Positions 21,915 to 39,447 of a stretch of DNA of 56,244 nt are shown here, piece after piece; position 1 is the first letter of the stretch, and every line of letters starts with the position of its first letter. The position numbers and the translations under genes are program-made. The stretch is taken from the NCBI GenBank assembly GCA_025453555.1, contig JALOQC010000009.1, forward strand, positions 1-56,244, written 5' to 3'. This DNA comes from Myxococcota bacterium (GTDB lineage Bacteria; Myxococcota_A; Polyangia; Polyangiales; Houyiibacteriaceae). The notes beneath the pieces are model-generated. The model searched no databases. It was given only the letters and a program-made list of their open reading frames with translations, and was not told the DNA's origin.

Positions 21915-22136
21915 GGCGCCCGTGTAGCAGGTCTCCCCGCCGTAGGAGAAGCGCCCCGACCTCGCGCGTTCGACGCTCGCCTGGAGGGCGACGAACGAGG
22001 CGTCCCGCTGAACGCGGTCGCTCTCTGCTCAGCCTCTCCGAGATGCTCGCGAAGCGCGCGTAGGGCACGCGCGAGACGCCCCGAGCGTTGCGCTCGCAGC
22101 GAGGATCTCCTCGGCGAAGCTCGCGGGAGAGCGCGC

Positions 22137-23387
22137 TCAGCGCGGAGGGAAGGGGCTCGTGAAGCTTCCGTGGGTGAGCGTCTGGCGCTTGAGCTGCTCG
22201 AGCTCCTGGGGGGTCTCGAAGGCCTCGTCGAGGCGGAGGCCGAGGGTCTGCGCGAGACGCCAGAGGAACTTCACGCCGACCACGGGGTTGCGCTGCACCA
22301 CCGAATAGAACGCTTCGCGCGAGAGGTGGAGCAAGCGGCACTCGCCCGCCGCGCGCACCGTGGCGCTACGCGGTCGTTGATTCAGGAGCGCCATCTCGCC
22401 GAAGTGCGAACCGGAGGGCAGCCGAGCCACTACCTTGCCGTTGCGGCTCACCTCGACCTCGCCGTCGACGATCACGAAGAGCCCCTCCGTGCCGTCGCCC
22501 TGCGCGAGGATCACGTCGCCCGCGGGCACGAAGAGCGACTCGATGGCGGAGCAGACCTGCGTGAGCTCCGCGAGGTCGAGCTCCGAGAAGAGGTGCACGT
22601 GGCGCAGCGCGGTGTGGTCCGCGTTGACCTGCGTGGCGCGCACGAGCTCCTCTTCCACCGCCGGGACCGAAGCCTCGGCCGCGAGCACGAGCGCGGTGAT
22701 GTTGTCGGACCCGCCGCGCTCGTTGGCGATGGTCACCAGACGCTCGGCGACCTTCGGTCCCTGCCCGAGCAGCGCGACGAGCTCGGCGTCGTCCTCGAAG
22801 TACTGGTGGAGCCCGTCGCTGCAGAGCAGCAGCACGTCCCCCAACAGGACGTCGAACACCAACAGATCCACCATCACGCGCTCCTGCGGTCCGACCGCGC
22901 GCGTCACGATGTTCCCGTGGTCGCTCTCCTTCGCTTGCTGCGGCGTGAGCACGCCCTGCCGCACCGCCTCGGCGAGGAAGGTGTGATCGTTGGAGAGCTG
23001 GTGGAGCTCCCCTCGTCGCGCGACGTAGAGCCGGCTGTCGCCGACGTGCGCGAGGATGCCCTTGCCACCACCGATCAGCAGCGCCGTGCACGTCGTGCCC
23101 ATCCCGCGGCGGCTCCGGTCGCTCTTGCCGAGCTCGTGCACGCGCTGGTTCGCCCGCTCGACCGCGGTACGCAACGCGGGCCCCGCCACGGCTGGGTCGG
23201 AGCTCACGCCCACGATGGCCTCGCGGATCGTCTCTGCCGCGGTCCGGCTCGCGACCTCACCCGCCGCGTGCCCACCCATCCCGTCGCAGACGACGTAGAG
23301 CCCGAGGGCGTCGTCGACGAGAAAGAAGTCTTCGTTGTGACTCCGCGTCCGGCCGACGTCGGTTCGCCCCTCCACCTGCCACCGCAT
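22137..23387 (-). CDS. PP2C-family Ser/Thr phosphatase fused to a cyclic-nucleotide-binding domain
   Basis: TDVGRTRSHNED, VCDGMGGH, GMGTT, HVGDSR, LLCSDGL, GGSDNIT; C-terminal FGEMALL..PRSATVRA. Confidence 0.93.
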   Translation of the reverse strand: MRWQVEGRTDVGRTRSHNEDFFLVDDALGLYVVCDGMGGHAAGEVASRTAAETIREAIVGVSSDPAVAGPALRTAVERANQRVHELGKSDRSRRGMGTTCTALLIGGGKGILAHVGDSRLYVARRGELHQLSNDHTFLAEAVRQGVLTPQQAKESDHGNIVTRAVGPQERVMVDLLVFDVLLGDVLLLCSDGLHQYFEDDAELVALLGQGPKVAERLVTIANERGGSDNITALVLAAEASVPAVEEELVRATQVNADHTALRHVHLFSELDLAELTQVCSAIESLFVPAGDVILAQGDGTEGLFVIVDGEVEVSRNGKVVARLPSGSHFGEMALLNQRPRSATVRAAGECRLLHLSREAFYSVVQRNPVVGVKFLWRLAQTLGLRLDEAFETPQELEQLKRQTLTHGSFTSPFPPR

Positions 23388-23571
23388 GCGGAAGCCTGCC
23401 ACCGCATGCGGAAGCCAGGCTACCAGCGCGACGGGCGATCGAGCAATCGCGACCCACCAGCGCACGCGGGAGATCGACTGGCCCTCATCCGCGGCTGCGG
23501 AGCTCGAGGTGTCGATCGACCACGAGCCGAGTCGGGGCTCAGTCTACTGTTCGAGTGATCGCGATCTTCCC

Positions 23572-24669
23572 TCAATCGGGGAAGGTGCCGTTTCGGATCC
23601 ACTCTTCGATCACTTCGAGCCCCTCGGTGTGCACGACCTCGGTGGCGATCTGCGGCATTTGTCCTGCGCCTCGGATCCCCATGCGCAAGTACACCGCACT
23701 ACCCTCCGGGTTGCCGGGGGCGACACGTTGAAGAGCCGTCTCGGGGGACATCGGATCGCGCCAACCGGCCATGGCGCGAACAGCGGTGCGAAAGACCGCG
23801 CTCTCCGTCACGTCGCCGAGCTCCGCTTCGACCCACAACCCGAGCCCACCGCCAGGCGCGGGAACCGCGCCGTTTGCAGGTCCGTGGCAATGCCCGCAGT
23901 TAGCGTGCAAGTAGCCGAGCGCCGCGACGGTGGCTTCATCGCCTGGAATTGCGCCTTCGTCGTTCGTGACCGTTTCCGACACGAGCTCGAGCTCCGCCAG
24001 CGTCGCCAGGTTGGTCTCCGTGTCCTCGTGGGCGAGCTGGATGGTTCCGAAACCCAAGACGCCGTCGGGCGAGCCTCCGCCCGCAGGACCGTGGCACTGG
24101 ACGCACATCGCCTGCGAAGGGATGTCGTGCCCCGTGTCGAGCACGTTCGACTCGCCGTCGACCACCTCCGTCACCGATGTCCCGTCCTCGCTCCACCGGT
24201 ACGTGCGGAATTGCCAATTGAACGCGCCCGTGCCGCTCTCGGTCTTCTCCATCACGCGCGTCTCGAGCCGACGTCCATCCAGGGAGAACGTCTTCCAGAT
24301 CTTCGTCCCCACCGGGAAGACCCACGCGTCGCGGTTCCGGGTGTCGATGACGGAGCCTTCGGGGAAGCGGATGAAACGTTCCTTGTCGGTCGCGTCGCTC
24401 CAGAGCCAGAAGCGTGGGGAGTACGCGAGGATGTCCGGGCCGACGTTCTCGCAGGTCGAGTCGACGTAGAGGCCGAGGGCTTCCGCGCACGCGGGGCCGG
24501 GCGGGCCGGAGTCGATGCCCGCATCCGCTTCGCCGGCGTCGGTGCCGGAGTCGTCGATGCCGGAGTCCGTGCCTTCGCCCGCGTCGGTTCCGCCGTCGGG
24601 GAACGTCGCGTCGTCGTCGCCGCAGCCGATCAGAACGAGCATCAGGAGCAGGGTTCCGGTGCGATTCAT
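23572..24669 (-). CDS. Diheme c-type cytochrome lipoprotein (SO2930-like domain)
   Basis: Lipobox LIGC; CVQCH and GYLHANCGHCH; LWSD..K.R.I..P.G, FPVGT..KTF, ETR and QMP motifs. Confidence 0.8.
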   Translation of the reverse strand: MNRTGTLLLMLVLIGCGDDDATFPDGGTDAGEGTDSGIDDSGTDAGEADAGIDSGPPGPACAEALGLYVDSTCENVGPDILAYSPRFWLWSDATDKERFIRFPEGSVIDTRNRDAWVFPVGTKIWKTFSLDGRRLETRVMEKTESGTGAFNWQFRTYRWSEDGTSVTEVVDGESNVLDTGHDIPSQAMCVQCHGPAGGGSPDGVLGFGTIQLAHEDTETNLATLAELELVSETVTNDEGAIPGDEATVAALGYLHANCGHCHGPANGAVPAPGGGLGLWVEAELGDVTESAVFRTAVRAMAGWRDPMSPETALQRVAPGNPEGSAVYLRMGIRGAGQMPQIATEVVHTEGLEVIEEWIRNGTFPD

Positions 24670-25073
24670 CGTTGGAGCCTCGCGAATGGGATCGAAGGGC
24701 AGACGGTCGAGGTGTGGAGGAGCAGGAGAAGCAGGGTCGCGAACGTTCGTTCGTGAGAGGTCGAGGACCGGGTCACCAGCGTGCCCGCGTGGACTCGAGG
24801 GGAATCCGGGCTCCGCGAACCATTTGCGGACCCTTGCGGACCCTTGCGGGCCTGGCGATTCGCGTTTTCGGAATCCGCCGCGGAACTAGTGACCGGCGCG
24901 CCTCCCGAGCGGTATGCTACGCCACGTCGTCGCGCCCGGACAGGCTCGACGTGCACGCGGATGCGTCGAACGAGCGCGCCGCGGGACGATGGCACGGCGA
25001 GCTGGCCAGCGTGATGGGGCAAAGGGGCGCCTCCACTCGACGGGGTGGGAGGCGAGGATGGGAAGGTAAACGC

Positions 25074-25982
25074 ATGAGCCGTTGGCTTTGGTTGGGGCTG
25101 TTCGCCCTCACCGTCGAGAGCGTCGTGAGCGGAGCAGGTGTCGCGAAGGCGCAGACCGATCCGCCGCCCGTTCAGGTCACCGAGAGCACGCAGACCACGC
25201 GGACGGACGAGAGCCTCGACCAGGCCGCGCGGCTCACCTTCCAAGCGGCGCGCGAGGCGTTCAGCAACGGCGACTACGAGACCGCGCTCGATCGCTTCAC
25301 GCAGGCGTACAGCCTGAGCCCGCGTCCGGTGTTGCTCTACAACATCGGCGTCACGCTCGATCGTCTGCGCCGCGACGAAGAGGCGGTCGCGCGCTTCACC
25401 GAGTACCTCGAGCGCGTGCCGGACGCGCCCGATCGGGCCGAGGTCGAGGCGCGAATTCGCGTGCTCCAACGCGCGATCGACGAGCGTCGTGCCCAAGAGG
25501 CGGCGCGCGAGGAGCAGGAGCGCATCGCGCGGGAGGAGGCCGAGCGGCTCGAGCGCGAACGTCAGCAGCGCGAGCGTCAGGGCGGCGGCACGACCCCGGT
25601 CGAAGAGGAGAGCTCGGGCTTGCATCCGGCGATCGCGCTCTCGGTCGGTGGGATCGCGCTCGCGACCGGCGGCCTGATCGTGTGGAGCGGGCTCGACGCG
25701 AGCAGCCGCAACGACGAGTACGAGGAGTACACCGAGCCCGGCAACGGAGGGATTCGCTCCGAGGGCAAGCGCCTCTACGACCGCGTTCGTGCGGCGGAGA
25801 CTCGAACCAACGCGCTCATCGGCGTCGCGAGCGGTCTCGCCGCGACGGCGGTGGTGCTCGCGATCTTCTCCGACTGGAGCTTCGGAGGCGGCGAGGACGC
25901 CGACCCGAGCGAGCCCAGCACCACCGTCGAAGGCGGCCCGACGTCGGGCGGCTTCCAGCTCGGGCTCACGCACCGCTTCTGA
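25074..25982 (+). CDS. Secreted TPR-repeat protein with a coiled coil and hydrophobic C-terminal region
   Basis: Signal peptide, GDYETAL..F..AY.L...P.LLYNIG TPR, E/R-rich coil and C-terminal LGLTHRF. Confidence 0.8.
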   Translation: MSRWLWLGLFALTVESVVSGAGVAKAQTDPPPVQVTESTQTTRTDESLDQAARLTFQAAREAFSNGDYETALDRFTQAYSLSPRPVLLYNIGVTLDRLRRDEEAVARFTEYLERVPDAPDRAEVEARIRVLQRAIDERRAQEAAREEQERIAREEAERLERERQQRERQGGGTTPVEEESSGLHPAIALSVGGIALATGGLIVWSGLDASSRNDEYEEYTEPGNGGIRSEGKRLYDRVRAAETRTNALIGVASGLAATAVVLAIFSDWSFGGGEDADPSEPSTTVEGGPTSGGFQLGLTHRF

Positions 25983-25997
25983 TCGCATTTGCCGAGG

Positions 25998-27107
25998 ATG
26001 AACCCCATGCTTCGACTCTCGACGCTTCGACTCTCGACCGCGACCTCGATCGCGCTCTTGCTCGCGGTGGCAGGCTGCTCGCTGGCCGACGCTTCGCGGT
26101 ACCAAGCGTTGCCGGAAGGACCGGTGGACGGAGGGACGGCGGACGCCGACGGCGCGACGCCGGATCCGGACTCGGGCATGGACGCCGGGCCGCCGGACCA
26201 GCTCGCGGTGGACGCCTGCGGCGACGACGACGTCTACGTGATCACCGACTCCGAGGAAGGCATCCTCGTCGACACGCGGCCCTTCGCGAGCGACGTCAAC
26301 AGCCTCCCCGGAAGCTGCGGTGTGAGCGCGCCCGGACCGGACGCTTTCTTCGCGGTCGACGTCCAGGCCGGCGAGTATTGGCACTTTCACCTCGCGGTCT
26401 CTCCGACGGATCCGGACCGTGTGAACCGCGACCCGATCCTCTACCTCCTCAACGCGTCGTGCGCGGAGACGCAGTGCTCCCGCGAGCTCTTCGCGAACTA
26501 CTGCGACAGCGCCGGCGACGAGCACTTCGGCTTCCAGTTCAACGAGTCGGGGCGCTGGTACATCGGCATCGACGATGGCAACCCGAGCGGCGGCCTCTAC
26601 ACGCTCGGCGCGTACCGTCCGACGTGCAACGGCACCGCGCCGGCCGAGCACGGCGAGTCGTGCGACGGCGAGGAAGGCTGCACGGAGGACTGCCGGCGCG
26701 TGATCGACGAGGATTCGGTCACCGAGTCGGGCTTCAGCTTCAACGTTCAGGAGGCGAACCTGATCCGGTTGTCGGCCGGGAACGAGCTGACGTTCGAGGG
26801 CGACGTCGGCGGGTTCGAAGGCTGCGCGTACCCGGACGTGTTCGCGATCGACATCCCGATGGGCGCCACGCTCACGGTGGAGGAGCTCGGCCCGGACGGG
26901 ATGACCTGCACGGGAGCGGGCGCGTCGTCGATCCAGATCGCCATCCAGAGCCGCACCGGCATGGTCCGCGCGCGCAGCAACGCGATGAACGGCTGCGCGG
27001 TGGTGAGCTCGACCTTCGCAGCCGAGGGACGCTTCTTCTTGGTGGTCACCGACGCGCGTGCGGACACTCGCACGCCGTACGCGTACCGGCTTCACGTCAG
27101 CTACTGA
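25998..27107 (+). CDS. Cys-containing lipoprotein with two PPC-like beta-sandwich domains
   Basis: Lipobox VAGC, DAG linker, SCG..APGPD.F, DP.LYLL, GRWYIGID, D.FAIDIP...LTV; GESCD spacer. Confidence 0.6.
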   Translation: MNPMLRLSTLRLSTATSIALLLAVAGCSLADASRYQALPEGPVDGGTADADGATPDPDSGMDAGPPDQLAVDACGDDDVYVITDSEEGILVDTRPFASDVNSLPGSCGVSAPGPDAFFAVDVQAGEYWHFHLAVSPTDPDRVNRDPILYLLNASCAETQCSRELFANYCDSAGDEHFGFQFNESGRWYIGIDDGNPSGGLYTLGAYRPTCNGTAPAEHGESCDGEEGCTEDCRRVIDEDSVTESGFSFNVQEANLIRLSAGNELTFEGDVGGFEGCAYPDVFAIDIPMGATLTVEELGPDGMTCTGAGASSIQIAIQSRTGMVRARSNAMNGCAVVSSTFAAEGRFFLVVTDARADTRTPYAYRLHVSY

Positions 27108-27146: not shown

Positions 27147-29552
27147 ATGCGCTCGGCTCTCGTCTGCGTCGCACGCTTCGCACGCTCGGCACCCATCGCG
27201 GCGGCGCTCGTCGCTTCCTTGGCGATGCCCAGCTCGGCGTTCGCGTTCGAGTACTACGCTGCGCGCGTGCCTCGCACGGCATCCGCGTCCGACTCGGTCG
27301 GCACGCCGCGGCCGTGCATCACGTGTCACAACAACGCCGACGGCGGACAAGGGTGCGAGACGATGGGCGGCACGCGCCCGTGTCTCAATCCCTTCGGCGT
27401 CGCGTTCCGCACCAATGGGTTCCGATGGACGCGGGAGCTCGCGGAGCTCGACTCGGACGGCGACGGCTTCACGAACGGGCAAGAGCTCCAGGATCCGAGC
27501 GGGAGCTGGCGACCGGGGCAGGCCAGCCCCGGGAACTCGGCCTACGTCACGCGTCCGGGCTTCCCGAGCAGCAGCCCCGGCAGCACCGACATGGACGGCG
27601 ACGACCACTGCTGGTTCGGACGTGACAGCAACGGCGACGGCGACTGCACGGACGCCGGAGAGAACGACGGGGCGCGCGATTGCAACGACTCCGACCCGAC
27701 GGTGAACAGCAGCGCGGCGGAGATCTGCAGCAACGCGATCGACAACGACTGCAACGGCCTACCGACGCTCAGCGATCCCGCGTGCATGGACGTGGTCGAC
27801 CGGGACGGCGACGGTTTCTGCCGGATGGGGCGCGACCTCAACGGCGATCGCGACTGCATCGACGGCGCGGGTGAGCTCACGGCGGACGTCGACTGCAACG
27901 ACGACAACGTGACGGTGTTCCCCGGCGCGCGCGAGAACTGCGCGGACGGGCTCGACAACGACTGCAACGGCGTGGCGGACGCGGCGGACTCGATGTGCCG
28001 CGGTGACGTCGACAACGACGGCGACGGCTACTGTCCGATCGGTCGCGACCTCAACGGCGATCGGAGCTGTCTCGATCCGGGCGAGGCGGACGGAGGCTTC
28101 GACTGCGACGACACCCGCGTCGACGTGAACCCCGGACAAACGGAGATGTGCACGGACGGGGTCGACAACGACTGCAACGGTCTCGCCGACTTTCGCGACC
28201 CCGTCTGCGCGGGATTCTTCGACGCGGACGGTGACGGTCATTGCCCGCTCGGCGAGGACCTCAACCGCGACGGAGACTGCATCGACGCAGACGAAGCGGC
28301 CGGAGAGCCCGACTGCGACGATACGGACCCGTTGGTGAGCCCGAGCGCGACCGAGGTGTGCACCAACGGCGGCGACGACGACTGCGACGGGCTCGTGAGC
28401 CTCGCGGACCCCGATTGCGCGGGCTACCTCGACACGGACGGCGATCGGTACTGCTTCGTCGGCTTCGACATGAACCGCGACGGAGACTGCGCGGACCCCG
28501 AAGAAGAGGGCGGTGCGTCCGACTGCGACGACACGCGCGCAGAGGTGAACCCGACCGTCGAAGAGGCGTGTACGGCGGCGGAGCTCGCCACGTGTGGTTC
28601 GTTCTGCACGAACGGGCTCGACGACGACTGCGACGGGAGCCTCGACGGTTTCGACCCCGGTTGTGCGATGGACTTCCGCGACTTCGATGGCGACGGCTGG
28701 TGCGGGGTCGGTCCCGATCTGAACACGGACGGAGACTGCTCCGACGAGGGCGAGCAGGTCGGACCCGCGGACGCGCGCCCGAACGACCCGACGGTGTACC
28801 CGGGTGCACCCGAGAACTGCGTCGACATGCGCGACAACGACCAGGACGGCATGGTCGACGAGGCGGAGTACTGCACGCGTGACGTGGATGCGGACGCGGA
28901 CGGGTTCTGCCCGATCGGGCGTGACGTGAACGGCGACGGCGACTGTCTCGACGACGAGCTCGGCGAGAACTTCTACGCGAGCGACTGCGACGAGAGCGAC
29001 CCTGCGCGCAACCCCGGCGCCGAAGAGGCGTGCTTCGATCGTCGCGACAACGACTGCGACGGCTTCGTGGATCTCGACGACTCGTCGTGTTTCTACCTGC
29101 TCGATCGGGACGGCGACGGCTTCTGCGGGCGCGGCATCGACGACAACATGGACGGCGACTGCCTCGACGACGAGGAAGACCGCTTCGGCGAGGACTGCGA
29201 CGACACGAACGCGGCGGTCAACGTGCGGGCGACGGAGATCTGCGACAACGGGATCGACGACGACTGCGACGGCGAGATCGACACCTTCGACTCGCAGTGC
29301 CCGTGTCCGGAGAATCACTGCGACGACGACGACCCGTGCACGGAAGACTCGTGCGGGCCGGGTTGGGAGTGCTCGTACAGCCCTGCGGCGGCGTGCATGG
29401 ATGGTGGCGTCGGAGTCGACGCCGGGATGGAAGGCGGCGGAGGCGGCGGCTGTGGCTGCGCCGCGCCGGGAGCCGGGCGCGCGCCGTGGGGCGCGGTGCT
29501 CGTGATGGTCGGTGTGGGGATAGGAGCGCTCGGACGTCGTCGTCGTCGCTGA
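27147..29552 (+). CDS. Surface protein: CxxCH/temptin-like N-domain, 8 Asp/Cys-rich putative metal-binding (MopE-type) repeats, MYXO-CTERM anchor
   Basis: Signal peptide AFA|F, CITCH, NPFG..F...W...L...DSDGDG.TNGQEL.DP; repeats DxDGDG.C...DC.D.....PG..E.C..G.DNDC.G; ends GCGC-TM-RRRRR. Confidence 0.85.
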   Translation: MRSALVCVARFARSAPIAAALVASLAMPSSAFAFEYYAARVPRTASASDSVGTPRPCITCHNNADGGQGCETMGGTRPCLNPFGVAFRTNGFRWTRELAELDSDGDGFTNGQELQDPSGSWRPGQASPGNSAYVTRPGFPSSSPGSTDMDGDDHCWFGRDSNGDGDCTDAGENDGARDCNDSDPTVNSSAAEICSNAIDNDCNGLPTLSDPACMDVVDRDGDGFCRMGRDLNGDRDCIDGAGELTADVDCNDDNVTVFPGARENCADGLDNDCNGVADAADSMCRGDVDNDGDGYCPIGRDLNGDRSCLDPGEADGGFDCDDTRVDVNPGQTEMCTDGVDNDCNGLADFRDPVCAGFFDADGDGHCPLGEDLNRDGDCIDADEAAGEPDCDDTDPLVSPSATEVCTNGGDDDCDGLVSLADPDCAGYLDTDGDRYCFVGFDMNRDGDCADPEEEGGASDCDDTRAEVNPTVEEACTAAELATCGSFCTNGLDDDCDGSLDGFDPGCAMDFRDFDGDGWCGVGPDLNTDGDCSDEGEQVGPADARPNDPTVYPGAPENCVDMRDNDQDGMVDEAEYCTRDVDADADGFCPIGRDVNGDGDCLDDELGENFYASDCDESDPARNPGAEEACFDRRDNDCDGFVDLDDSSCFYLLDRDGDGFCGRGIDDNMDGDCLDDEEDRFGEDCDDTNAAVNVRATEICDNGIDDDCDGEIDTFDSQCPCPENHCDDDDPCTEDSCGPGWECSYSPAAACMDGGVGVDAGMEGGGGGGCGCAAPGAGRAPWGAVLVMVGVGIGALGRRRRR

Positions 29553-29648
29553 ATGATTCGGCGCGGGAAGGCACGAGCTCGGGAAGAGGCATGCCTCGAC
29601 GAAGATCGTCGTCGGGGCGAAGCCGAGAACGATTCGGTGGGGGTGGGC

Positions 29649-32600
29649 ATGCGCGGGCGGCAGCGGTCGTGGCGGGTGTCGTGTGGGTCGAGGGCGCTCT
29701 CGTTCCTCGCCGTGATGGGCCTCGTGTGGTCCAGCGCGATGGGGGTGGCGCACGCGTTCCCGGCGTACCGAGACTCCGTTCCACATGGGTACACGTTCGG
29801 AACGGGGGACTACGGAGCGGGCTGTCTGCTCTGTCACACCAACTCGAACGGTGGCTACGGTTGTGCGGCGGGAACCGCGCCGTGCTTGAACGTCTTCGGG
29901 ATCGCCTTCCAGTCCAACGACTGGACGTGGAACTCGACGCTGCGAAACGGAGATCCGGACGGAGACCAACGGACGAACGGGCAAGAGCTTCGATACTTCG
30001 GGACCTCTTGGACCGTGGGGAACTCGGTCGGAGCGGGTCCGACGCAGCCGTGGACGAGCGGAAGCCGTCACTCGAACGAGTGCTCTCTTCAGTCGACGTA
30101 CAGCGGGAACGTTCATCCGAACAATTACACGAATTGTTCCTCTGCGGCGGGTGCGGTCTGTACGGACAACTCCACGCTGACGTCGACGCCCGGCTCGACG
30201 CGCTACTGGGGCTTCACGTGCAGCTGCGCGGACGGCTACACGGGCAACGGCCGTGTCGACGTCGCGTTCGATGGCGTCACGGATAGTGGTGCAAGTTCGT
30301 GCGCCGACATCAACGAGTGCACGCTCTACGACCGTTGTTACCAGAGCACCGGGCAGAACACGTGCATCAACTCGAGCGGGAGCTACTCGTGCTCCTGCAA
30401 CTCGACTTGGTACACGTACACGGGGATCCCGTACCCACAGTGTCTCGACCGAAACGAGTGCACCGCGGTGCCGGGTCGTTGTGGTCCGGCGCCCAACTCG
30501 TGCACCAACCAGGTCGGCGGGTTCGATTGCAATTGTGGCTCCGGGTACGTCCTGCAGTCCAACGAGACCACCAGCGAGACGTGCGCGGACGTCAACGAGT
30601 GTCTGTCGTCGCCATGCGGCGTGGGGTCGTGCTCGAACACCTCGGGGAGCTACACGTGCTCGTGCCCGAGCGGGTACTCGGCCCCGGGCAGCGGCGGCAC
30701 CTGCACGGACGTGAACGAGTGCGTGTCGTCGCCGTGCGGTGTGGGCTCGTGCTCGAACACGGCGGGGAGCTACACGTGCTCGTGCCCGAGCGGGTACTCG
30801 GCCCCGGGCAGTGGCGGGACGTGCACGGACGTGAACGAGTGCGTGTCGTCGCCGTGCGGCGTGGGCTCGTGCTCGAACTCGGCGGGGAGCTACACGTGCA
30901 CGTGCCCGAGCGGGTACTCGGCCCCGGGCAGCGGCGGCACCTGCACGGACGTGAACGAGTGCCTGTCGTCGCCGTGCGGCGTGGGCTCGTGCTCGAACTC
31001 GGCAGGGACCTACGCGTGCACGTGCCCGAGCGGCTACACGGCGCCTGCGAACGGCGGCACGTGCACGGACGTGAACGAGTGCCTGTCGTCGCCGTGCGGC
31101 GTGGGCTCCTGCTCGAACTCGGCCGGCACCTACGCGTGCACCTGCCCGAGCGGCTACACGGCGCCCGCGAACGGCGGCTCCTGCACCGACGTGAACGAGT
31201 GCGCGGACAACCCGATGATCTGCGGGGTCGGCTCGTGCTCGAACACCGCGGGCTCGTACACCTGCTCGTGCCCGGCGGGCTACTCCGCGCCGGGCAGCGG
31301 CGGGACGTGCAGCGACGTCAACGAGTGCGCGACCGCGTCGCGTTGTGGGCGTGATCTCAGCATGTCGAACACCTGCACGAACACCACCGGTGGGTACACG
31401 TGCGGCTGCGCGACCGGCTTCGTGCCGAGCGGCTCGGGTCTCTCCGCGACGTGCATCGACGTGAACGAGTGCTCCACGCCCACGACGTGTGGCGCGAACG
31501 CAGGCGCCGGCTCCTGCACGAACACCGTCGGCGGCTACACCTGTTCGTGCGCGGCGGGGTACATGACGCAGGGCAGCGGGCAGACGCTGACGTGCGTGGA
31601 CACGAACGAGTGCGCGACGGCCTCGCGCTGCGGGCGTGATCTCAGCATGACGAACGTCTGCACGAACGCGTCGGGCGGGTACTCGTGCACGTGCGCGAGC
31701 GGCTTCCAGGCGTCGGGCAGCGGGTTCTCCGCGACGTGCGTGGACACGAACGAGTGCGGCACCGCGACCACGTGCAACGCGAACCTCGGCTACGGCACCT
31801 GCTCGAACACGGTGGGCGGCTACAACTGCTCGTGCGCGATGGGCTACGGCTTCGACGGCACGACGTGTGTGGTCGAGAACGAGTGCACGACCGGCATGAA
31901 CAACTGCAGCGTCAACGCGACCTGCACCGACACCCCGAGCTCGTTCACCTGCACGTGCAACCCGGGCTACACGGGCAACGGCGTGATGTGCTCGGACGTC
32001 AACGAGTGCGCGGCGGCGACGGCGTGCGGACGGAACCTCAGCGTCTCGAACACCTGCACGAACAGCACGGGCGGCTACACGTGCATGTGTGGCTCCGGCT
32101 ACCAGGCCTCGGGCAGCGGGCTCTCCGCGACCTGCGTCGACGTGAACGAGTGCACGAGCACGCCCGGGATCTGTGGAGCGGGCACGTGCTCCAACACGAG
32201 CGGCGCGTACACGTGCGCGTGCAGCGCGGGCTACACGTTCAACGGCACGACCTGCGTGAACGTGAACGAGTGCGCGACGGCCACGACGTGTGGTCGGAAC
32301 CTCAGCGCGCTCAACACCTGCACGGACACCGTCGGCGGCTTCGTGTGTGGCTGCGGCGCGGGCTTCCAGTCGCAAGGCTCGGGGCTCTCCGCGACGTGCG
32401 TGGACGTGAACGAGTGCTCGAGCGGATCGCCCTGCGCGCCCGGCACCTGCAACAACACGGTCGGCAGCTACACGTGCACGTGCCCGAGCGGCTTCACCAC
32501 GATGGGCGGAGCGTGCGTGGACGTGAACGAGTGCGCGACCGCGTCGACGTGTGGCTCGGCGCGGACGGGCTGCACGAACACCGCGGGCTCGTACCAATGC

Positions 32601-34784
32601 GCGTGCGCGGCGGGCTACACCGCGCCCGCGAGCGGCGGCACGTGCGGCGACGTGAACGAGTGCGCGACCGCGTCGACGTGTGGCTCGGCGCGGACCGGGT
32701 GCACGAACACCGCGGGCTCGTACCACTGCGCGTGCGCGGCGGGTTACACCGCGCCCGCGAGCGGCGGCACGTGCGGCGACGTGGACGAGTGCGCGACCGC
32801 GTCGACGTGCGGCTCGGCGCGGACGGGCTGCACGAACACCGCAGGCTCGTACCAGTGTGCGTGCGCGTCCGGGTACACGGCGCCCGCGAGCGGCGGCACG
32901 TGCGCGGACGTGAACGAGTGCTCGACCGCGTCGACGTGCGGAGCGGCGCGCGCGACGTGCACGAACACCGCGGGCTCGTACGTGTGCACGTGCGATCCCG
33001 GGCATCGCGCGCCGGCGAGCGGCGGCACGTGCGCGGACGTGAACGAGTGCGCGGAGTCGCCGACGATCTGCAGCAACGGCACCTGCGCGAACACGACGGG
33101 CTCGTATGCCTGCACGTGCCCGAGCGGTTACCGGGCGCCCGCGAGCGGCGGCACGTGCAGCGACGTCGACGAGTGCGCCGAGACGGCGGGGCTCTGCGGC
33201 GCGGGCTCCTCCGGCTGCACGAACACCGCCGGAACCTACACGTGCGCGTGCGCGAGCGGGTATCGCGCACCGGCGTTCGGCGGCGCGTGCGTGGACGTGA
33301 ACGAGTGCGCCGAGAACCCGATGGTCTGTGGAAACGGCACCTGCGCGAACACCGTGGGTGCATACCGATGCACCTGCCCGGCGGGTTTCCGTGCTCCTGC
33401 GTCGGGCGGGACCTGCATGAACGTCGACGAGTGCGTGGAGACGCCGACGATCTGCGGTGCGGGCGCCGAGGGGTGCGAGGATCGGCTCGGGACCTACGCG
33501 TGCACGTGCCGACCCGGGTACCAGAGCCCCGCCACCGGGGGAACCTGCACGGACGTGGACGAATGCGCGCTCGGAACCCCGTGTGATCCGGGGACCTGCT
33601 CGAACACGGTCGGCTCGTACACCTGCACGTGTCCGCGAGGCTACGTGGCCGAAGAGGGGGGATGCGTCGACGTCAACGAGTGCATCCCGATGCCGTGTGG
33701 TGAAGGCACGTGCGTGGAGGCGGATCCGGGCGACTACGACTGCATCTGCAACGCGGGCTACGAGAAGGACGAGCCGCTCAACGGGACGTGCATCGACATC
33801 GACGAGTGCTCGCGACCGGAGCTCGACGAGTGCGCGGGGGACGCCACGTGCGCGAACACGGTCGGTGGGTTCACCTGCACCTGCAACCCCGGCTACGCGG
33901 GCGACGGGCGCACGTGCACGGACGTCGACGAGTGCGCGGACGTGACGCTCAACGAGTGCTCTCCGAACGCGGCGTGCACGAACGAGCCTGGCTCGTACGC
34001 GTGCGAGTGCATGACGGGATTCGAAGGCTCAGGCGTCGACTGTCGCGACGTCGACGAGTGCGCGACCGCCAACCCGTGCGATCGCCGCGCGGAGCGATGC
34101 ATCAACCTCGTCGGCATGCCGGCGGTCTGCGAGTGCGCGCCCGGCTTCAGTGCGGACGCGGAGGGTGAGTGCCAGAGCAGCTGTGGCAACGGCGATCGCG
34201 TGCGCGGCGAGGAGTGCGACGACGGAAACCTCGACGAGGGTGATGGCTGCTCGGCGGTCTGCGAGGTCGAGGAGGGCTGGTCGTGCTGGGAGCCCGACGG
34301 ACCGGTGTCGGTGTGTCTCGAGACGTGTGGTGACGGAGTCATCCACCCGAACGAGGAGTGCGACGCGGGCGAAGCGAACTCGGACGAGCTCGCAAACGCG
34401 TGCCGCACGCGCTGCGTCGAAGCTTCGTGCGGCGATGGGGTGATCGACGAAGGCGAGGCGTGCGACGACGGCGACGAGAACTCGGATCGTTCCGCGGGCG
34501 CGTGCCGCACGACGTGTGTGGCGGCGTACTGCGGCGACGGAGTGATCGACGACGGCGAGAGCTGCGATCCCGCGACGGGCGAAGGCACCGCAGCGGATGC
34601 GTGCACGACGGGCTGCACACCGCCCGACGCGGGTGTGAGCCCCGACGCCGGCATCACGCCGGAGCCGGACGGCGACGGTTGTGGCTGCTCGGCGCCCGGT
34701 GCAGGGGGTGACTCGACGGGCGCGCTCGCGCTGCTCGGGCTCGCGATCACGACGGTCTTCGTGCGACGCTCGCGCCGCCGATGA
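29649..34784 (+). CDS. Giant fibrillin-like surface protein: CxxCH/temptin-like N-domain, about 31 calcium-binding EGF modules, 4 Myxococcus cysteine-rich repeats, MYXO-CTERM anchor
   Basis: Signal peptide AHA|F, CLLCH, DVNEC...C.NT.GSY.C.C..GY repeats, CGDG.....E.CDDG repeats and GCGC-TM-RRSRRR. Alternative start 29553 abuts the upstream stop. Confidence 0.9.
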   Translation: MRGRQRSWRVSCGSRALSFLAVMGLVWSSAMGVAHAFPAYRDSVPHGYTFGTGDYGAGCLLCHTNSNGGYGCAAGTAPCLNVFGIAFQSNDWTWNSTLRNGDPDGDQRTNGQELRYFGTSWTVGNSVGAGPTQPWTSGSRHSNECSLQSTYSGNVHPNNYTNCSSAAGAVCTDNSTLTSTPGSTRYWGFTCSCADGYTGNGRVDVAFDGVTDSGASSCADINECTLYDRCYQSTGQNTCINSSGSYSCSCNSTWYTYTGIPYPQCLDRNECTAVPGRCGPAPNSCTNQVGGFDCNCGSGYVLQSNETTSETCADVNECLSSPCGVGSCSNTSGSYTCSCPSGYSAPGSGGTCTDVNECVSSPCGVGSCSNTAGSYTCSCPSGYSAPGSGGTCTDVNECVSSPCGVGSCSNSAGSYTCTCPSGYSAPGSGGTCTDVNECLSSPCGVGSCSNSAGTYACTCPSGYTAPANGGTCTDVNECLSSPCGVGSCSNSAGTYACTCPSGYTAPANGGSCTDVNECADNPMICGVGSCSNTAGSYTCSCPAGYSAPGSGGTCSDVNECATASRCGRDLSMSNTCTNTTGGYTCGCATGFVPSGSGLSATCIDVNECSTPTTCGANAGAGSCTNTVGGYTCSCAAGYMTQGSGQTLTCVDTNECATASRCGRDLSMTNVCTNASGGYSCTCASGFQASGSGFSATCVDTNECGTATTCNANLGYGTCSNTVGGYNCSCAMGYGFDGTTCVVENECTTGMNNCSVNATCTDTPSSFTCTCNPGYTGNGVMCSDVNECAAATACGRNLSVSNTCTNSTGGYTCMCGSGYQASGSGLSATCVDVNECTSTPGICGAGTCSNTSGAYTCACSAGYTFNGTTCVNVNECATATTCGRNLSALNTCTDTVGGFVCGCGAGFQSQGSGLSATCVDVNECSSGSPCAPGTCNNTVGSYTCTCPSGFTTMGGACVDVNECATASTCGSARTGCTNTAGSYQCACAAGYTAPASGGTCGDVNECATASTCGSARTGCTNTAGSYHCACAAGYTAPASGGTCGDVDECATASTCGSARTGCTNTAGSYQCACASGYTAPASGGTCADVNECSTASTCGAARATCTNTAGSYVCTCDPGHRAPASGGTCADVNECAESPTICSNGTCANTTGSYACTCPSGYRAPASGGTCSDVDECAETAGLCGAGSSGCTNTAGTYTCACASGYRAPAFGGACVDVNECAENPMVCGNGTCANTVGAYRCTCPAGFRAPASGGTCMNVDECVETPTICGAGAEGCEDRLGTYACTCRPGYQSPATGGTCTDVDECALGTPCDPGTCSNTVGSYTCTCPRGYVAEEGGCVDVNECIPMPCGEGTCVEADPGDYDCICNAGYEKDEPLNGTCIDIDECSRPELDECAGDATCANTVGGFTCTCNPGYAGDGRTCTDVDECADVTLNECSPNAACTNEPGSYACECMTGFEGSGVDCRDVDECATANPCDRRAERCINLVGMPAVCECAPGFSADAEGECQSSCGNGDRVRGEECDDGNLDEGDGCSAVCEVEEGWSCWEPDGPVSVCLETCGDGVIHPNEECDAGEANSDELANACRTRCVEASCGDGVIDEGEACDDGDENSDRSAGACRTTCVAAYCGDGVIDDGESCDPATGEGTAADACTTGCTPPDAGVSPDAGITPEPDGDGCGCSAPGAGGDSTGALALLGLAITTVFVRRSRRR
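30580..31200 (+). repeat. Five near-identical 120-bp cbEGF-coding tandem repeats
   Basis: DVNEC(L/V)SSPCGVGSCSN..G.Y.C.CPSGY.AP..GG.CT units at an exact 120-bp period. Confidence 0.9.
32515..33050 (+). repeat. About four near-identical 126-bp cbEGF-coding tandem repeats
   Basis: DV(N/D)ECATASTCGSARTGCTNTAGSY.CAC..GYTAPASGGTC units. Confidence 0.88.
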
Positions 34785-35254: not shown

Positions 35255-36412
35255 ATGGTGGTGGGTCGATGGGCGGTGTGTCGATGCGTGGGGATCGCGC
35301 TCGGCTCGATGATGCTCGTGGCGTGCACGGGCACGCTGAGCTCGCGCGTCGACGACGAGCGTGACGCGGGCGGGCGAGTCGATGCGGGCACGCCGATCGC
35401 GCTCGACGGCGGTGGCGGGATCGACGCAGCCCCGGGCGGCGATGCGGGCACGACGAGCGACGCGGGCATCGATGCGGGGCCGAGCGATCCGTGCGCGAGC
35501 GTGAGCTGCGGTGCGAACGCGGCCTGCGATCCGCGCACGCGGGTGTGCGTCTGTCGACCCGGCTTCGTGGACGACGGCGCGGAATGCGTGGCTCCTCCGC
35601 CCGGCGATCCGGCGACGCGCTCCGAGACCGAGGTCTGCGAGGCGTGGCGCGGAGGGCACGTCGAGAACGCGAGCCCGGCGTGGAGCGGCTCGGGGTGCGG
35701 GCCGGGCTCGATGGCGCCGGAGGCGATCGACGACACCCTCCGCCGCATCAACCTCTTCCGTTGGCTCGCGGGGCTGCCGCCCGTTCTGGATCAACCGTCG
35801 GAGCAAGCGTCGCAAATCGAATGCGCGGTGATGATGAGCGCCAACGGCAGCCTCTCGCACGATCCGCCGTCGGGTTGGGAGTGCTACACGAGCGCGGGCG
35901 CAGCGGCGGCAGGTCGGTCGAACATCGCGCTCGGCTACGGCTCGCCAGGCTCCGCGATCGACGGGTACATGCTCGATCGCAACGTGCCGAGCCTCGGACA
36001 CCGGCGGTGGATCTTGAACCCACCGCTCGGGCGCGTCGGCATCGGCTTCGCGTCGCCTTCACGGCCGGGTCAGTGTCTGAGCGTCTTCGATCGCAGCGGC
36101 CCCGGTTCGGAGCGCACGTGGACCGCGTATCCGAACCCCGGCCCTGCGCCGATCTTCCTCGCGGAAGGCGAGTGGTCGTTCCAGACCCACGGCATCTCGC
36201 TCTCCGGCGAAGCGTCGGCGATCGTCGTACGCGTGTCCGACGGCTCGACGCTGCCGGTGACGACGCGCCAGACGGGGGGGGGCGGCCCGCCCAACTCGCT
36301 CGTGATCGTCCCCGAGGGTTGGCGCCCCACCGCGGGCGAGACGTACCGCGTGACGATCACCGGGCTCTCGACGGGCGAGCTGACCTACGAGACGACGCCG
36401 GTCGACTGCTGA
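35255..36412 (+). CDS. CAP (SCP/PR-1) domain lipoprotein with an EGF-like module
   Basis: LVAC lipobox, DAG linker, C.SVSCGANA.C....C.CRPGF, INLFRWLAGLPP, LSHDPP, SNIA, LGHRRWILNP...VGIGF. Confidence 0.85.
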   Translation: MVVGRWAVCRCVGIALGSMMLVACTGTLSSRVDDERDAGGRVDAGTPIALDGGGGIDAAPGGDAGTTSDAGIDAGPSDPCASVSCGANAACDPRTRVCVCRPGFVDDGAECVAPPPGDPATRSETEVCEAWRGGHVENASPAWSGSGCGPGSMAPEAIDDTLRRINLFRWLAGLPPVLDQPSEQASQIECAVMMSANGSLSHDPPSGWECYTSAGAAAAGRSNIALGYGSPGSAIDGYMLDRNVPSLGHRRWILNPPLGRVGIGFASPSRPGQCLSVFDRSGPGSERTWTAYPNPGPAPIFLAEGEWSFQTHGISLSGEASAIVVRVSDGSTLPVTTRQTGGGGPPNSLVIVPEGWRPTAGETYRVTITGLSTGELTYETTPVDC

Positions 36413-36686
36413 GCGCCTCGACCGTCGAGCGCGACGACGACTGCTCGCATCGCCTAGAGCGCATCTCATGACCTCCCGCGGCCGCTTCGCGGCATCCGCA
36501 CGCCGCTCGCCGCCATCCACGCTCGAAAATGCACCACATTTCCTCGGTTCGCGGACGCGGCGATCGACGCACGGGCTGCCACGAATCGACTCACGGCAGG
36601 TAATGAGATGCGCTCTAGTCTGCGGAGCCCGTCGAGCGCGAGCACGACGTTTCGTCGGCGTCCGCGCTCGTGATATCTGCGCGTTC

Positions 36687-37508
36687 GTGGACGTCGCGGA
36701 TTGGGATCGGTACTGGCGCTTCGAAGAGTTTCGTCGGAGCTGCGATCCGCTCGACTTCCGCCGTTGGAAGCGCGACAGCCAACGCGAGCTGCGCGCGCTT
36801 CATCCGGGGGAGGGGGTGCGCCTCCTCGACGCGACCGCGGGCATGGGGGACCACACCGTGAACCTCGCGGAGGAAGGCTTCGTCGTCGAGGCGTGCGACG
36901 CGAGCGAGGTGGCGCGCGAGCTGACGACGCGCGCGGTGCGGGAGGCGAAGCTCGACGTGCCGGTCTTCGACGCGCGGTGGGAGACGCTCGGGCAGAGCCA
37001 TCGGTCGTGCTACGATCTGATCTTCAACGACGCGCTCCATTGGACGTGGGATCGCGACGTGCTCGCGGCGCAGCTCCGCGGCTTCCTCGACGCGCTGCGG
37101 CCGGGTGGCGCGCTCGTCTTCTTCTTCGCCGACGCCCGCGAGCCCGACGAAGGCGCGGGGCTGCGGATCCTCGAATGGGATTGGTCGCAGACGACGGATT
37201 CGTCGGGTCAGCCGCCGACGTTCGAGCGCGTGGCTTGGACACACGAACGAGACGGACGACACGTCGAGCTGACGATCCGCTCGGAACGTGGCGAAGCGTT
37301 CCTCGACGAGCATCACCGCTTCGTCGATCGACGTGGCGACGAAGAGACGATCTCCGAGCTCGTGATGCGCCGCGTGTATCGCTGGGATTGGTTCGCGCTC
37401 TCGCGTTTGATGTACGACGTCGGCTTCGTCGACGTGCGCAGCGACGTGCTCCACAACCGCGCGAAGGGCTACACGTTCGCGATGAACCGAGCGTTTCGTC
37501 CGCGCTGA
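36687..37508 (+). CDS. Class I SAM-dependent methyltransferase
   Basis: LLDATAGMGDH, ACDAS, YDLIF, LRPGG. Start uncertain (GTG 36687 chosen). Confidence 0.82.
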   Translation: MDVADWDRYWRFEEFRRSCDPLDFRRWKRDSQRELRALHPGEGVRLLDATAGMGDHTVNLAEEGFVVEACDASEVARELTTRAVREAKLDVPVFDARWETLGQSHRSCYDLIFNDALHWTWDRDVLAAQLRGFLDALRPGGALVFFFADAREPDEGAGLRILEWDWSQTTDSSGQPPTFERVAWTHERDGRHVELTIRSERGEAFLDEHHRFVDRRGDEETISELVMRRVYRWDWFALSRLMYDVGFVDVRSDVLHNRAKGYTFAMNRAFRPR

Positions 37509-37718: not shown

Positions 37719-39068
37719 TCACATCCGTCCGTCGGGGCCTGGGTTGCAGACGCAGATCCCGCAGCCGGTCTCGTCGGTCTGGAAGCCGTGCTCGCAGTAG
37801 AGGTCGCAGTACACGGGCGGGCACTCGACCACGTCGGGCACGCACTGGCCGTAGCAGACCGCGGGGCACGCCATGTCCCCCGAGCACGGCGAGAGGCACT
37901 CGCTGTGGTCGCAGAGGAAGCCCGGACCGCAGTCCTCGCTCGCGAAGCAGAGGACGGGCTCGACCGAGCACTCGCCTTCGCTCACGACCTCGTCGCCGTA
38001 GCACTCGGCTTCGCAGGCGTTCGACCAGGTGCGGCCGCTCGCGCCACACACCGGAGCCCAGATGTCCGGGCACACGCAGCTCGGCTCGATCGGCGCGCAG
38101 TACTCGCGGCAGGGCGCTCCGCAGTCGCTGCCGTCCTCGCACCACACCGGCGCGCACTCGGTGCGGCACTCGTAGCCTTCGCCGCAGTCCGCGACGCCGT
38201 CGCCGTCCATGTCGCAGCCCTCGGGCTCGTGGCGCGGCACGCAGACACCCGGCGCGGGCGGCGGCGGCGCGGCGCACTCGCCGTCGTGGTGGACGGGGAC
38301 GCCCCAGCACTCGGCCTCACAGGCGTTCGAGTAGGTCACTCCGTCCGCACCGCAGACCGGCGCGTACTCGCGGGTGCAGGCGCACTCGGGGCGCATGTCG
38401 GGCTCGCCGTCGCCGTCGTAGTCCTCGCCCGGATGAGCCGGCGTCGACCCGTCGTCACCGCGGTAGCCCATGCCCGGATCGCCGGGGACCGAGCCGTCGT
38501 CACCGCAGGGCGGCGGCTCCGTCGGGAGCGAGCAGACCTCGTGCGGCGCGCAGTCGAAGTCCGAGAAGCAGCCGACCGGCGGCGGCTCGACCGGCACGCA
38601 GGTGCCGTGCTCGGGGCGATAGACCATGCCGTCGTCGAAGGGCAGCGGCTCCGGGCCGCCGTCGAACACGCAGATCTCGCCGCGGGCGCAGTCGCCGTCG
38701 TCGTCGCAGCCGATCGGGCCTTCGTCGGTGCAGCGGCCGTAGCAGACCGCGATGCAGGCCTCGGCGCCGTCGGGGCAGCCGCTCAGGCACTCGGAGTGGT
38801 CGCAGGCCTGCCCCATCGCGCAGTCGTCGTTGCTGAGGCAGAGGCCGCCGTCGGAGTTGCACTCGCCTTCGTAGGCGACCTCGACGCCTGCCGCGTTCGC
38901 GTGGCACGCGCTCGAATAGGTGACTCCGTCGACGCCACAGACGGGCGCCCAGATCTCGGGGCAGACGTCCGGAGGCGGCTCGGGCTCGCACCCGCGGTTG
39001 CCCGCGAGCATCGGCACCAAGCCGAGACAACAGAGCAGCCAAGTCCTCGTACGGTGAGCAGCAAGCAT
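37719..39068 (-). CDS. Secreted Cys-rich protein with three Kazal-type domains and a C-terminal antistasin-like domain
   Basis: CP.IWAPVCG.DG.TYS.AC units x3; CPPVYCDLYCEHGFQTDETGCGICVC; N-terminal signal/lipobox-like NRGC. Confidence 0.85.
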   Translation of the reverse strand: MLAAHRTRTWLLCCLGLVPMLAGNRGCEPEPPPDVCPEIWAPVCGVDGVTYSSACHANAAGVEVAYEGECNSDGGLCLSNDDCAMGQACDHSECLSGCPDGAEACIAVCYGRCTDEGPIGCDDDGDCARGEICVFDGGPEPLPFDDGMVYRPEHGTCVPVEPPPVGCFSDFDCAPHEVCSLPTEPPPCGDDGSVPGDPGMGYRGDDGSTPAHPGEDYDGDGEPDMRPECACTREYAPVCGADGVTYSNACEAECWGVPVHHDGECAAPPPPAPGVCVPRHEPEGCDMDGDGVADCGEGYECRTECAPVWCEDGSDCGAPCREYCAPIEPSCVCPDIWAPVCGASGRTWSNACEAECYGDEVVSEGECSVEPVLCFASEDCGPGFLCDHSECLSPCSGDMACPAVCYGQCVPDVVECPPVYCDLYCEHGFQTDETGCGICVCNPGPDGRM

Positions 39069-39447
39069 CGTCGGTCCCTTTCCATCGAAGCGCGGCGTGC
39101 CGAAGCGTGCCGTCGCGCGACCTCTCGTCTCCATCGGCCGCGCGAGGCGCGCACCGATCCCTCCACGCCCCCGCAGGGGAGGCGCCGTGGGCTCTGGTTC
39201 GGCGGCATCGGCCGCGTTCCGTTCGCTCCACGTGGGTGTCGTGGAGGCTCCGAGCAGGTCCCGTCAGGAAAAATGATCGACGTGTGTCACTTCTCGCGTT
39301 TGGCCGGAATGTGCCACGGTGTGCGAACGTCGTACGCGTTTGCCGGACGACCGAAGACCGCGCCGTCGCTACCAGAAGACGCGAGCGAGCGAGCGAGCGA
39401 GCGCGCATGGGTTGGTTGGCACGGCATCGGGGCGCGCCGCTCTGACT

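Follow-up and report, generated by a model that had tools for sequence, protein, structure and literature searches.

Two tandem surface proteins of a Myxococcota bacterium share a CxxCH-bearing Temptin_C head that may be an unrecognised c-type cytochrome domain

Within a stretch of 56,244 nucleotides from the genome of a Myxococcota bacterium (contig JALOQC010000009.1 of assembly GCA_025453555.1; we call the whole stretch the window), two adjacent genes on the forward strand encode large proteins, P0001 and P0002, that follow one plan—a signal peptide, a small N-terminal head, a long stalk of repeats and a C-terminal MYXO-CTERM anchor—and differ in the repeats from which the stalk is made. The head belongs to the Pfam family Temptin_C, and it contains Cys-x-x-Cys-His (CxxCH), a putative attachment site for haem c. 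What is a head of this kind, and does it carry a haem? We take up these two questions here, starting from the genes themselves.

The open reading frame (ORF) of P0001 occupies positions 27147-29552 (801 aa), and that of P0002 occupies 29553-34784 (1743 aa). Their GC contents at third codon positions (GC3), 0.87 and 0.90, are at the level expected of real genes in DNA of 69-71% GC (the window runs at 68-73% GC, save for one 2-kb bin at 65%); an antisense ORF at 27759-33005 (1748 aa) fell below our GC3 cut of 0.82 and was discarded. The stop codon of P0001 abuts the first ATG of the P0002 ORF in the same frame (29550-29555). To judge by eye, the ATG at 29649 is probably the real start of P0002, as it yields a normal signal peptide that would be cleaved between AHA and FPAY. 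An earlier, sequence-only reading of this DNA had described two tandem ORFs with a CITCH at 27315-27329 and a CLLCH at 29823-29837, and those coordinates hold, with both ORFs on the forward strand.

P0001 opens with a signal peptide of 33 residues (27147-27245; cleavage after AFA, by eye) and continues directly into its head (27246-27566; residues 34-140, about 107 aa), within which the CITCH supplies C57, C60 and H61 and a predicted Ca2+ loop of the EF-hand or TSP3 type, DSDGDGFTNGQEL, lies at 27450-27488 (TSP3_bac matches residues 102-115). The stalk (27588-29321) consists of eight Asp/Cys repeats of about 70 aa each, of the type called Cu-binding_MopE or acidic double-disulfide repeat: PF11617 (Cu-binding_MopE) finds eight stretches, scoring 168.3 bits, the pattern D-x-D-x-D-x-x-C finds eight repeat starts, in agreement with the number first proposed, and NCBIfam NF033662 (acidic double-disulfide repeat) gives a weak match. 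The copper-binding role of the MopE-type repeat is only a name in the databases. The protein ends (29442-29552, stop codon included) in GCGC, a transmembrane helix and RRRRR.

The head of P0002 (29757-30062) has its CLLCH at C91, C94 and H95 in the numbering of the ORF and, by alignment, a predicted Ca2+ loop, DPDGDQRTNGQEL, at 29952-29990. Behind the head comes an array of about 30 epidermal growth factor-like (EGF) modules (30078-34172), in which Pfam recognises 29 stretches of EGF_CA (683 bits) and patterns recognise 29 Ca2+-binding D-x-N/D-E-C signatures and 30 C-x-C-x-x-G-aromatic signatures; the figure of about 31 Ca2+-binding modules in the sequence-only reading was thus slightly high, whereas the four Myxococcus-type Cys-rich repeats that it counted after them are indeed there (34182-34622; PF13948, DUF4215, 28.1 bits), four units of the form CG[DN]G...E-x-CD by pattern, two of which Pfam scores. 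The anchor and stop codon (34674-34784) read GCGC, a transmembrane helix and RRSRRR. Both C termini, taken for MYXO-CTERM anchors from the outset, exceed the TIGR03901 cut-off of 20 bits (22.9 for P0001 and 25.6 for P0002). The two proteins are rich in Cys and poor in His (61 and 4 in P0001; 212 and 8 in P0002), and in each the only C-x-x-C spacing is the CxxCH of the head.

The first 100 or so mature residues of these two proteins are paralogous, as had been supposed: the heads align with 34 identities in 70 residues (49%; E 1e-20). Temptin_C (PF24784; gathering threshold 27) is a curated family that accepts both, at 63.9 bits for P0001 and 40.6 bits for P0002, which bears out the proposed kinship with temptin. 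What they share with temptin, and with the same domain at the N terminus of lophotrochozoan DBH-like monooxygenases, is N-x-F-G, a Trp, D-S-D-G-D-G-x-T-N-G-x-E-L and a His that aligns. They differ in three ways. First, where bacterial heads have C-x-x-C-H, the eukaryotic proteins have x-I/V/L-G-H. Second, UniRef names the domain the “Temptin Cys/Cys disulfide domain,” but the disulfide pair that brackets the Ca2+ loop in temptin (L-C...D-P-x-C-x-W) is absent from both window heads in our alignment; neither position is a Cys in P0001 (LAELDSDGDG...QDPSGSW) or in P0002 (LRNGDPDGD...YFGTSW), and an inserted G-C...P-C pair is found instead. (Other bacterial members, L006, L010 and L018 among them, do have the temptin pair.) Third, temptins are small free proteins, whereas the window heads cap anchored stalks at the N terminus.

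Across 116 head sequences, the invariant or nearly invariant features are P-N-G, C-x-x-C-H, F-G, W and D-x-D-x-D-G-x-x-N-G-x-E-L-x-D-P...W, and the C, C and H are invariant columns in each of four head alignments (A1, A2, A4 and A5). The loop fits the EF-hand consensus D-x-D-x-D-G-x-x-x-x-x-E, with D, D, D, N, G, E and L invariant; searched against the sequences of the Protein Data Bank (PDB), the head profile matches the EF-loops of calmodulin (E about 5e-5). An AlphaFold2 model of the P0001 head (pLDDT 89.3; pTM 0.82) shows a small domain, mostly loops and short helices, with one helix directly after the loop. By its sequence, this loop probably holds a structural Ca2+.

Is the CxxCH a fixture of the family or a peculiarity of these two genes? 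The sequence-only reading had named its conservation in homologues as the point on which the whole idea could fail, and it did not fail. The genome of the window (8.3 Mb in 699 contigs, 89% complete) has five copies of Temptin_C, all five with CxxCH—three on MopE-type and two on EGF/DUF4215 stalks, by eye. Among 401 Myxococcota genomes sampled, 58 have a Temptin_C match (56 above threshold), and at the 34 Myxococcota loci that we read every primary match has CxxCH; counting second copies, 37 of 38 heads have it, and the one without is a 132-aa ORF cut at its N terminus. Short homologues of 70-223 aa from other phyla, many of them named as type IX secretion system (T9SS) sorting-domain proteins of Kapabacteria, Melioribacteraceae or Bacteroidota, have it in 21 of 21 cases. 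A profile built from 30 heads retrieves 4343 cluster representatives at E<=1e-3, of which 2443 remain at E<=1e-10, and the best 150 of the 4343 included 146 newly retrieved proteins. In 136 of these 146, a CxxCH lies upstream of the Ca2+ loop (a pattern detects 128, inspection by eye adds five, and three are tandem arrays), a count to be read with the bias of that list toward its own CxxCH-bearing query. The remaining 10 comprise six proteins of temptin type (five with eukaryotic names and one unnamed) and four giant repeat proteins with partial matches; of the four proteins that complete the 150, three belong to the alignment of short homologues and have CxxCH, and the fourth, P0022, was left out. 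In sequence, then, the bacterial head is a large family that spans several phyla and in which CxxCH is essentially invariant.

The tandem arrays deserve a word of their own. Three metagenomic, membrane-anchored proteins consist of head-like repeats, seven in P0039 (643 aa), five in P0041 (466 aa) and four in P0047 (388 aa), with one CxxCH and one EF-hand loop apiece; in P0039, EF-hand_1 is above the Pfam threshold.

These observations lead us to suggest that haem is probably attached covalently at the CxxCH of the head. We would go one step further, to a proposal that we regard as about evenly balanced between right and wrong: P0001 and P0002 would be surface, lipid-anchored stalk proteins whose distal N-terminal head is an unrecognised mono-haem c-type cytochrome domain, the bacterial form of Temptin_C, with CxxCH and an EF-hand-like Ca2+ loop, serving most likely as a tethered redox module in which the haem is open or weakly ligated. 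Three marks of a c-type cytochrome are in place: the CxxCH, export (signal peptides, by eye) and a maturation system in the genome. That system is of the System I type, with one match to CcmE and three to the CcmF/CcmC family; ResB was not found in the 89%-complete genome. System I is described as demanding little beyond CXXCH itself (PMC3601427, in the portion available), and clients of the MYXO-CTERM route are described as folding in the periplasm before the secretion system of type II (T2SS) moves them to the surface (PMC11980579, likewise in part), so that this route is compatible with cargo that bears a cofactor.

Much can be said on the other side. No distal ligand—Met, a second His, Lys or Tyr—is conserved across the 116 head sequences, no solved structure resembles the head model, which matches none of the known cytochrome folds, and Pfam, even at E<=10, assigns the heads to no cytochrome family; the head thus shows neither a distal Met or His kept across the family nor a fold or family by which a c-type cytochrome would be known. 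The presence of maturation genes does not discriminate, since 396 of the 401 Myxococcota genomes have cytochrome c assembly genes with or without a head (they are in all 56 genomes with an above-threshold head, and they are missing from a single sub-threshold genome, G264, whose match covers just part of the loop). CxxCH also occurs in Zn sites, and LIM and C2H2 proteins are among the weak PDB matches. The partners to which heads are fused are mostly adhesin-like stalks of Ig, cadherin, PKD and EGF modules and not redox enzymes, and an obvious electron sink, an AA10 lytic polysaccharide monooxygenase (LPMO; PF03067), was not found in the 89%-complete window genome; we have dropped the idea of LPMO donation for this organism on that account. 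All of these points weigh against a cytochrome, as does the available portion of an analysis of recombinant Aplysia temptin, which describes two disulfides and mentions no haem.

Comparison with proteins of known structure helps less than one might wish. Searched against PDB sequences, a profile of the whole head finds EF-hand loops and weak cytochrome motif matches and nothing else. A profile of the N-terminal half does find c-type cytochromes in 56 of its 60 best PDB sequences, aligned at their haem sites (one of them, cytochrome c-554, over 35 columns that include the FG motif), but these matches are largely driven by the motif and hence are not independent evidence.

Might the head, then, have no haem at all? 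Cys-x-x-Cys-His could bind Zn, Cu or Fe, or act as a redox-active dithiol, and the head could be a Ca2+-dependent module for adhesion or ligand binding, much like the “glue” role proposed for animal temptin. The fold that is unlike a cytochrome, the Zn-binding LIM and C2H2 proteins among the weak matches, the predominance of adhesin-like stalks and the annotation of MopE-type repeats as a putative metal-binding motif would all sit well with such a module, as would the eukaryotic temptins, which work without both Cys while keeping the His. The difficulty is that an exported CxxCH is expected to be haem-modified where System I operates, so that thousands of members would have to escape; moreover, tandem arrays with one CxxCH per repeat and fusions to dehydrogenases that use pyrroloquinoline quinone (PQQ) are typical of cytochromes. 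We regard the haem-free head as unlikely.

Those fusions bring us to the company that the head keeps. It sits directly behind the signal peptide (in 84 short members, the first head Cys is at median residue 39, interquartile range 37-42), and what follows varies greatly. A Pfam scan of 20 long Myxococcota ORFs showed seven MopE-type stalks, six of EGF/DUF4215, one of FG-GAP repeats with Lcl_C, one of collagen with DUF7151 and five without a Pfam family; the FG-GAP stalk with its Lcl C-terminal domain is that of L046 (G253:C50), and the collagen triple-helix stalk is that of L052 (G151:C132). Fifty-one long members drawn from wider searches mostly have Ig-like, cadherin-like, PKD, CHRD and EGF modules and T9SS tails as partners, with one PQQ sugar dehydrogenase and one purple acid phosphatase. 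Stalk swapping, which the sequence-only reading had proposed to look for, is therefore real and widespread. The sorting tag, for its part, tracks lineage, MYXO-CTERM in Myxococcota and a T9SS tail in Bacteroidota-like phyla, and such lineage-matched tags for surface sorting argue that the head works outside the cell.

The dehydrogenases are the most telling partners. When relatives of one PQQ sugar dehydrogenase (GSDH) are ranked, eight clusters in the best 120 have an N-terminal Temptin_C head (P0293, P0302, P0313, P0315, P0316, P0320, P0330 and P0350), and these eight are exactly the clusters with CxxCH. The window genome has three genes of the GSDH family. There is a parallel in fungi, in which a PQQ pyranose dehydrogenase has, in the position of our head, an N-terminal cytochrome domain that binds haem b (PMC4332668, as far as its available text goes), and in which such cytochrome domains also occur tethered and standing alone (PMC13575373, with the same limit). 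In other words, the head resembles the fungal AA8 domains in being an N-terminal extracellular module on either a PQQ beta-propeller dehydrogenase or a noncatalytic tether (AA8-AA12 and AA8-CBM in the available parts of the same two sources). The resemblance ends there: the head is a small domain of loops and short helices with a motif for covalent haem, and it has no sequence relationship to AA8. For their part, AA8 domains hold haem b noncovalently in a DOMON-type beta-sandwich and are also N-terminal in cellobiose dehydrogenase. We take the PQQ-dehydrogenase fusions to be the best hint that what the head exchanges is electrons.

A haem that is attached need not transfer electrons, of course. 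It might instead bind a ligand or catalyse a reaction—binding gas or sulfide, acting like a peroxidase or handling reactive oxygen species—at a distance from the cell that would let it act on prey, matrix or oxidants. The want of a conserved distal ligand suggests a five-coordinate or labile site, and a lone haem on a stalk that presumably does not conduct seems ill placed for respiration. A Ca2+ site beside the haem is known in haem peroxidases and in the di-haem CCP/MauG proteins, and CCP/MauG proteins are among the weak motif matches. However, the catalytic distal residues (His, Arg or Glu) are no more conserved than a distal ligand is, and the recurrent placement of the head in the cytochrome slot of PQQ dehydrogenases points to electron transfer. 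A catalytic or ligand-binding haem seems to us to have only a small chance of being correct.

How might the proposed tethered redox module work? After Sec export, periplasmic System I (Ccm) would attach haem to C57 and C60 of P0001 (C91 and C94 of P0002), with H61 (H95) as the proximal ligand, and disulfides and Ca2+ would stiffen the MopE-type or Ca2+-binding EGF stalk. The arrays of Ca2+-binding EGF modules in fibrillin are rods stiffened in just this way, by Ca2+ and disulfides, and P0002, with its 29 EGF_CA matches, is like them, as P0001, with its eight matches to PF11617, is like other MopE-type repeat proteins; unlike fibrillin, the window stalks are bacterial, are predicted to be lipid-anchored and are capped by a head. 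The Cys of MYXO-CTERM would then be lipidated, myxosortase would cut and the T2SS would carry the folded protein to the surface. There, the head would be the part farthest from the membrane, because the lipid anchor is C-terminal and the head N-terminal, and the two heads would stand at two different heights, because one stalk has eight repeats of 70 aa and the other about 30 EGF modules plus four Cys-rich repeats. At these heights, diffusible partners in the extracellular matrix (secreted oxidoreductases or small molecules, for example) would be bound by the head or would trade electrons with it.

What the head probably is not is the end of a wire. The suggestion of an extracellular electron-transfer tip, made from the sequence before our analysis, looks doubtful, since a single haem would sit on about 560 or about 1500 residues of disulfide and Ca2+ modules with no visible path of conduction, and we reject a path along the stalk on these physical grounds. 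It is the combination of a stalk that should not conduct with the lack of a conserved distal Met or His that leads us to favor a tethered redox module over a wire to the cell. The surface cytochromes of the MtrC/OmcA type, which are lipoproteins matured by System I and exported by the T2SS, make an instructive comparison: the window proteins are like them in the Sec signal, CxxCH, Ccm genes, lipid anchor and predicted T2SS route, but where MtrC and OmcA pack ten haems closely together, there is one putative haem per 800-1700 residues here, and the head differs from c-type cytochromes generally in having neither a conserved distal ligand nor a fold that matches theirs. Could the sixth ligand be the alpha-amino group, as it is in cytochrome f? 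The mature N terminus is always 15-25 residues before the CxxCH, and we offer the thought as speculation; the internal repeats of the tandem arrays argue against it as a general rule.

The pairing of a short stalk with a long one is not confined to the window. A relative in the same family (L035) has the same tandem, short-stalk gene first and long-stalk gene second, and in a metagenomic protein of 1420 aa (P0045) the pair is a single ORF in which a MYXO-CTERM lies in the interior and a second signal peptide comes after it. From their Pfam lists, P0187, P0189, P0205, P0055 and P0234 also look fused. (A protein of M. xanthus with an internal MYXO-CTERM is mentioned in the available portion of PMC11980579.)

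A pair that is conserved and sometimes fused might call to mind receptors, and there is a precedent in the same group of bacteria. The outer-membrane-exchange receptor of Myxococcus xanthus, TraA, has the same layout of N-terminal head, Cys-rich stalk (DUF4215 repeats included) and MYXO-CTERM and is anchored by way of myxosortase and the T2SS, according to the parts of PMC11980579 at hand. Could P0001 and P0002 likewise be receptors between cells or between cell and prey, with heads that bind homotypically or heterotypically and a CxxCH that is incidental? We think this very improbable. Recognition in TraA is the business of a polymorphic PA14-like domain, whereas the window heads are Temptin_C domains with CxxCH and are conserved (identity in the nearest clusters is 95% and 85%, and the domain can still be recognised in other phyla); Pfam finds no PA14-like domain in either protein, and outside Myxococcota, this head is carried by minimal T9SS proteins (about 220 aa) and by enzymes.

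If the head is a tethered redox module, what are we to make of the temptins for which the family is named? The best-150 list includes five named relatives without CxxC, from one bivalve, one snail and three oomycetes. In these eukaryotic temptins, the His aligns with that of CxxCH, and both Cys are replaced, which agrees with the statement in the sequence-only reading that the equivalent His of temptin has no CxxC. They retain their own Cys pair around the Ca2+ loop. Because they keep the His and other disulfides and lose both of these Cys, the CxxC pair is not a structural disulfide of the fold. The secretory pathway of eukaryotes is not known to have machinery for cytochrome c maturation or to make haem c, and the loss of both Cys fits that absence. 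DOMON is a domain family that includes haem-binding cytochrome domains. In the lophotrochozoan DBH-like copper monooxygenases, the temptin domain occupies a slot that is otherwise held by a DOMON domain (PMC2762978, available in part).

These considerations invite a broader proposal, which we advance tentatively and with less than even confidence. The temptin superfamily may be, ancestrally, a haem-binding electron-transfer domain. In bacteria it would make up a new structural class among the c-type cytochromes (CxxCH plus an EF-hand Ca2+ loop, with no solved relative), which many phyla would employ as their usual redox cap at the N terminus of stalks outside the cell, of surface proteins with T9SS or MYXO-CTERM tags and of dehydrogenases that use PQQ. 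The temptins of animals and oomycetes, among them the pheromone of Aplysia and the N-domain of DBH-like copper monooxygenases, would be its descendants; since haem c cannot be made in the secretory pathway, they would have lost the thioether Cys, and they would have kept the axial His, with which they may still bind haem b or a metal. The gene pair described here would then set two redox centers at two heights.

The head genes have steady neighbors upstream. A gene for a protein with tetratricopeptide (TPR) repeats (24414-25982, forward strand; sub-threshold Pfam TPR matches) opens what appears to be a conserved cluster, and a gene for a predicted lipoprotein of 372 aa (25989-27107, forward; lipobox LAVAGC, by eye) comes next, directly upstream of the MopE-type head gene. 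Homologues of the lipoprotein (33-48% identity) are next to the head gene at seven of seven MopE-type loci of other genomes, and homologues of the TPR protein (tblastn) are upstream at six of the seven, the seventh locus ending earlier; this conservation spans several families of the order. For the lipoprotein, Pfam gives no family at E<=1, no second copy of its gene was found in its own genome, and the only Atlas leads for it are myxobacterial proteins of the DUF4215/PPC type. Both neighbors may be partners or assembly factors of the head proteins. Close homologues, which come from Sandaracinus, Sandaracinaceae, Polyangiales and unclassified Myxococcota metagenome-assembled genomes, are named “MopE-related protein” or “putative metal-binding motif-containing protein” by NCBI.

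Other features of the window lie farther out. Beside the pair, two genes encode secreted proteins with eukaryote-like domains, one of the CAP/SCP family (35255-36412, forward) and one with Kazal and antistasin protease-inhibitor domains (37719-39263, reverse). Between them, at about 36454-36620, is a repeat (about 170 bp) whose ends are inverted and whose interior shows an imperfect inverted symmetry. It has 73 blastn matches across the genome, many of 88-95% identity, and contigs C109 and C386 have copies of it beside paralogues of the head genes; it resembles an element of the MITE or REP type, and because it overlaps the annotated start of the methyltransferase ORF at 36468-37508, that start is doubtful. 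Upstream, at 19502-23543 on the reverse strand, are genes for a Ser/Thr kinase that has a PEGA domain and for a PP2C phosphatase joined to a cyclic nucleotide monophosphate (cNMP)-binding domain, the PP2C gene being syntenic in two related genomes (60-61% identity).

How much of this is new? The sequence-only reading had held the pairing to be undescribed, and that is right only in part. The combination of MopE repeats with Temptin_C already exists in automatic database clusters, under the names “MopE-related protein” and “Temptin C-terminal domain-containing protein,” and P0001 and P0002 are ordinary members of existing clusters. However, in a literature search that was thin in subscription journals and did not extend to supplements, we found no paper on bacterial temptin homologues or their CxxCH, and with the same thin coverage of subscription journals, none that combines CXXCH with MYXO-CTERM; the temptin literature that we did find is nearly all on animals, with one paper on an oomycete and one that is unrelated. 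The novelty is the reading of the family as a cytochrome and not the sequence family itself.

Should the head bind haem, several thousand proteins that now go by no more than “Temptin C-terminal domain-containing,” “MopE-related” or “T9SS sorting domain-containing” would prove to be cytochromes that work outside the cell and have a new fold, and the inventory of extracellular redox proteins would change in Myxococcota, in Bacteroidota/Ignavibacteria-like lineages, in Gemmatimonadota, in Acidobacteriota and in others. A subgroup of bacterial PQQ sugar dehydrogenases would have a built-in electron acceptor, and the conserved His of animal temptins and of the N-domain of DBH-like monooxygenases would gain a biochemical hypothesis that can be tested. 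For the window itself, a conserved gene cluster would be explained, one that runs from a TPR protein and a lipoprotein to a head on a short stalk and a head on a long one.

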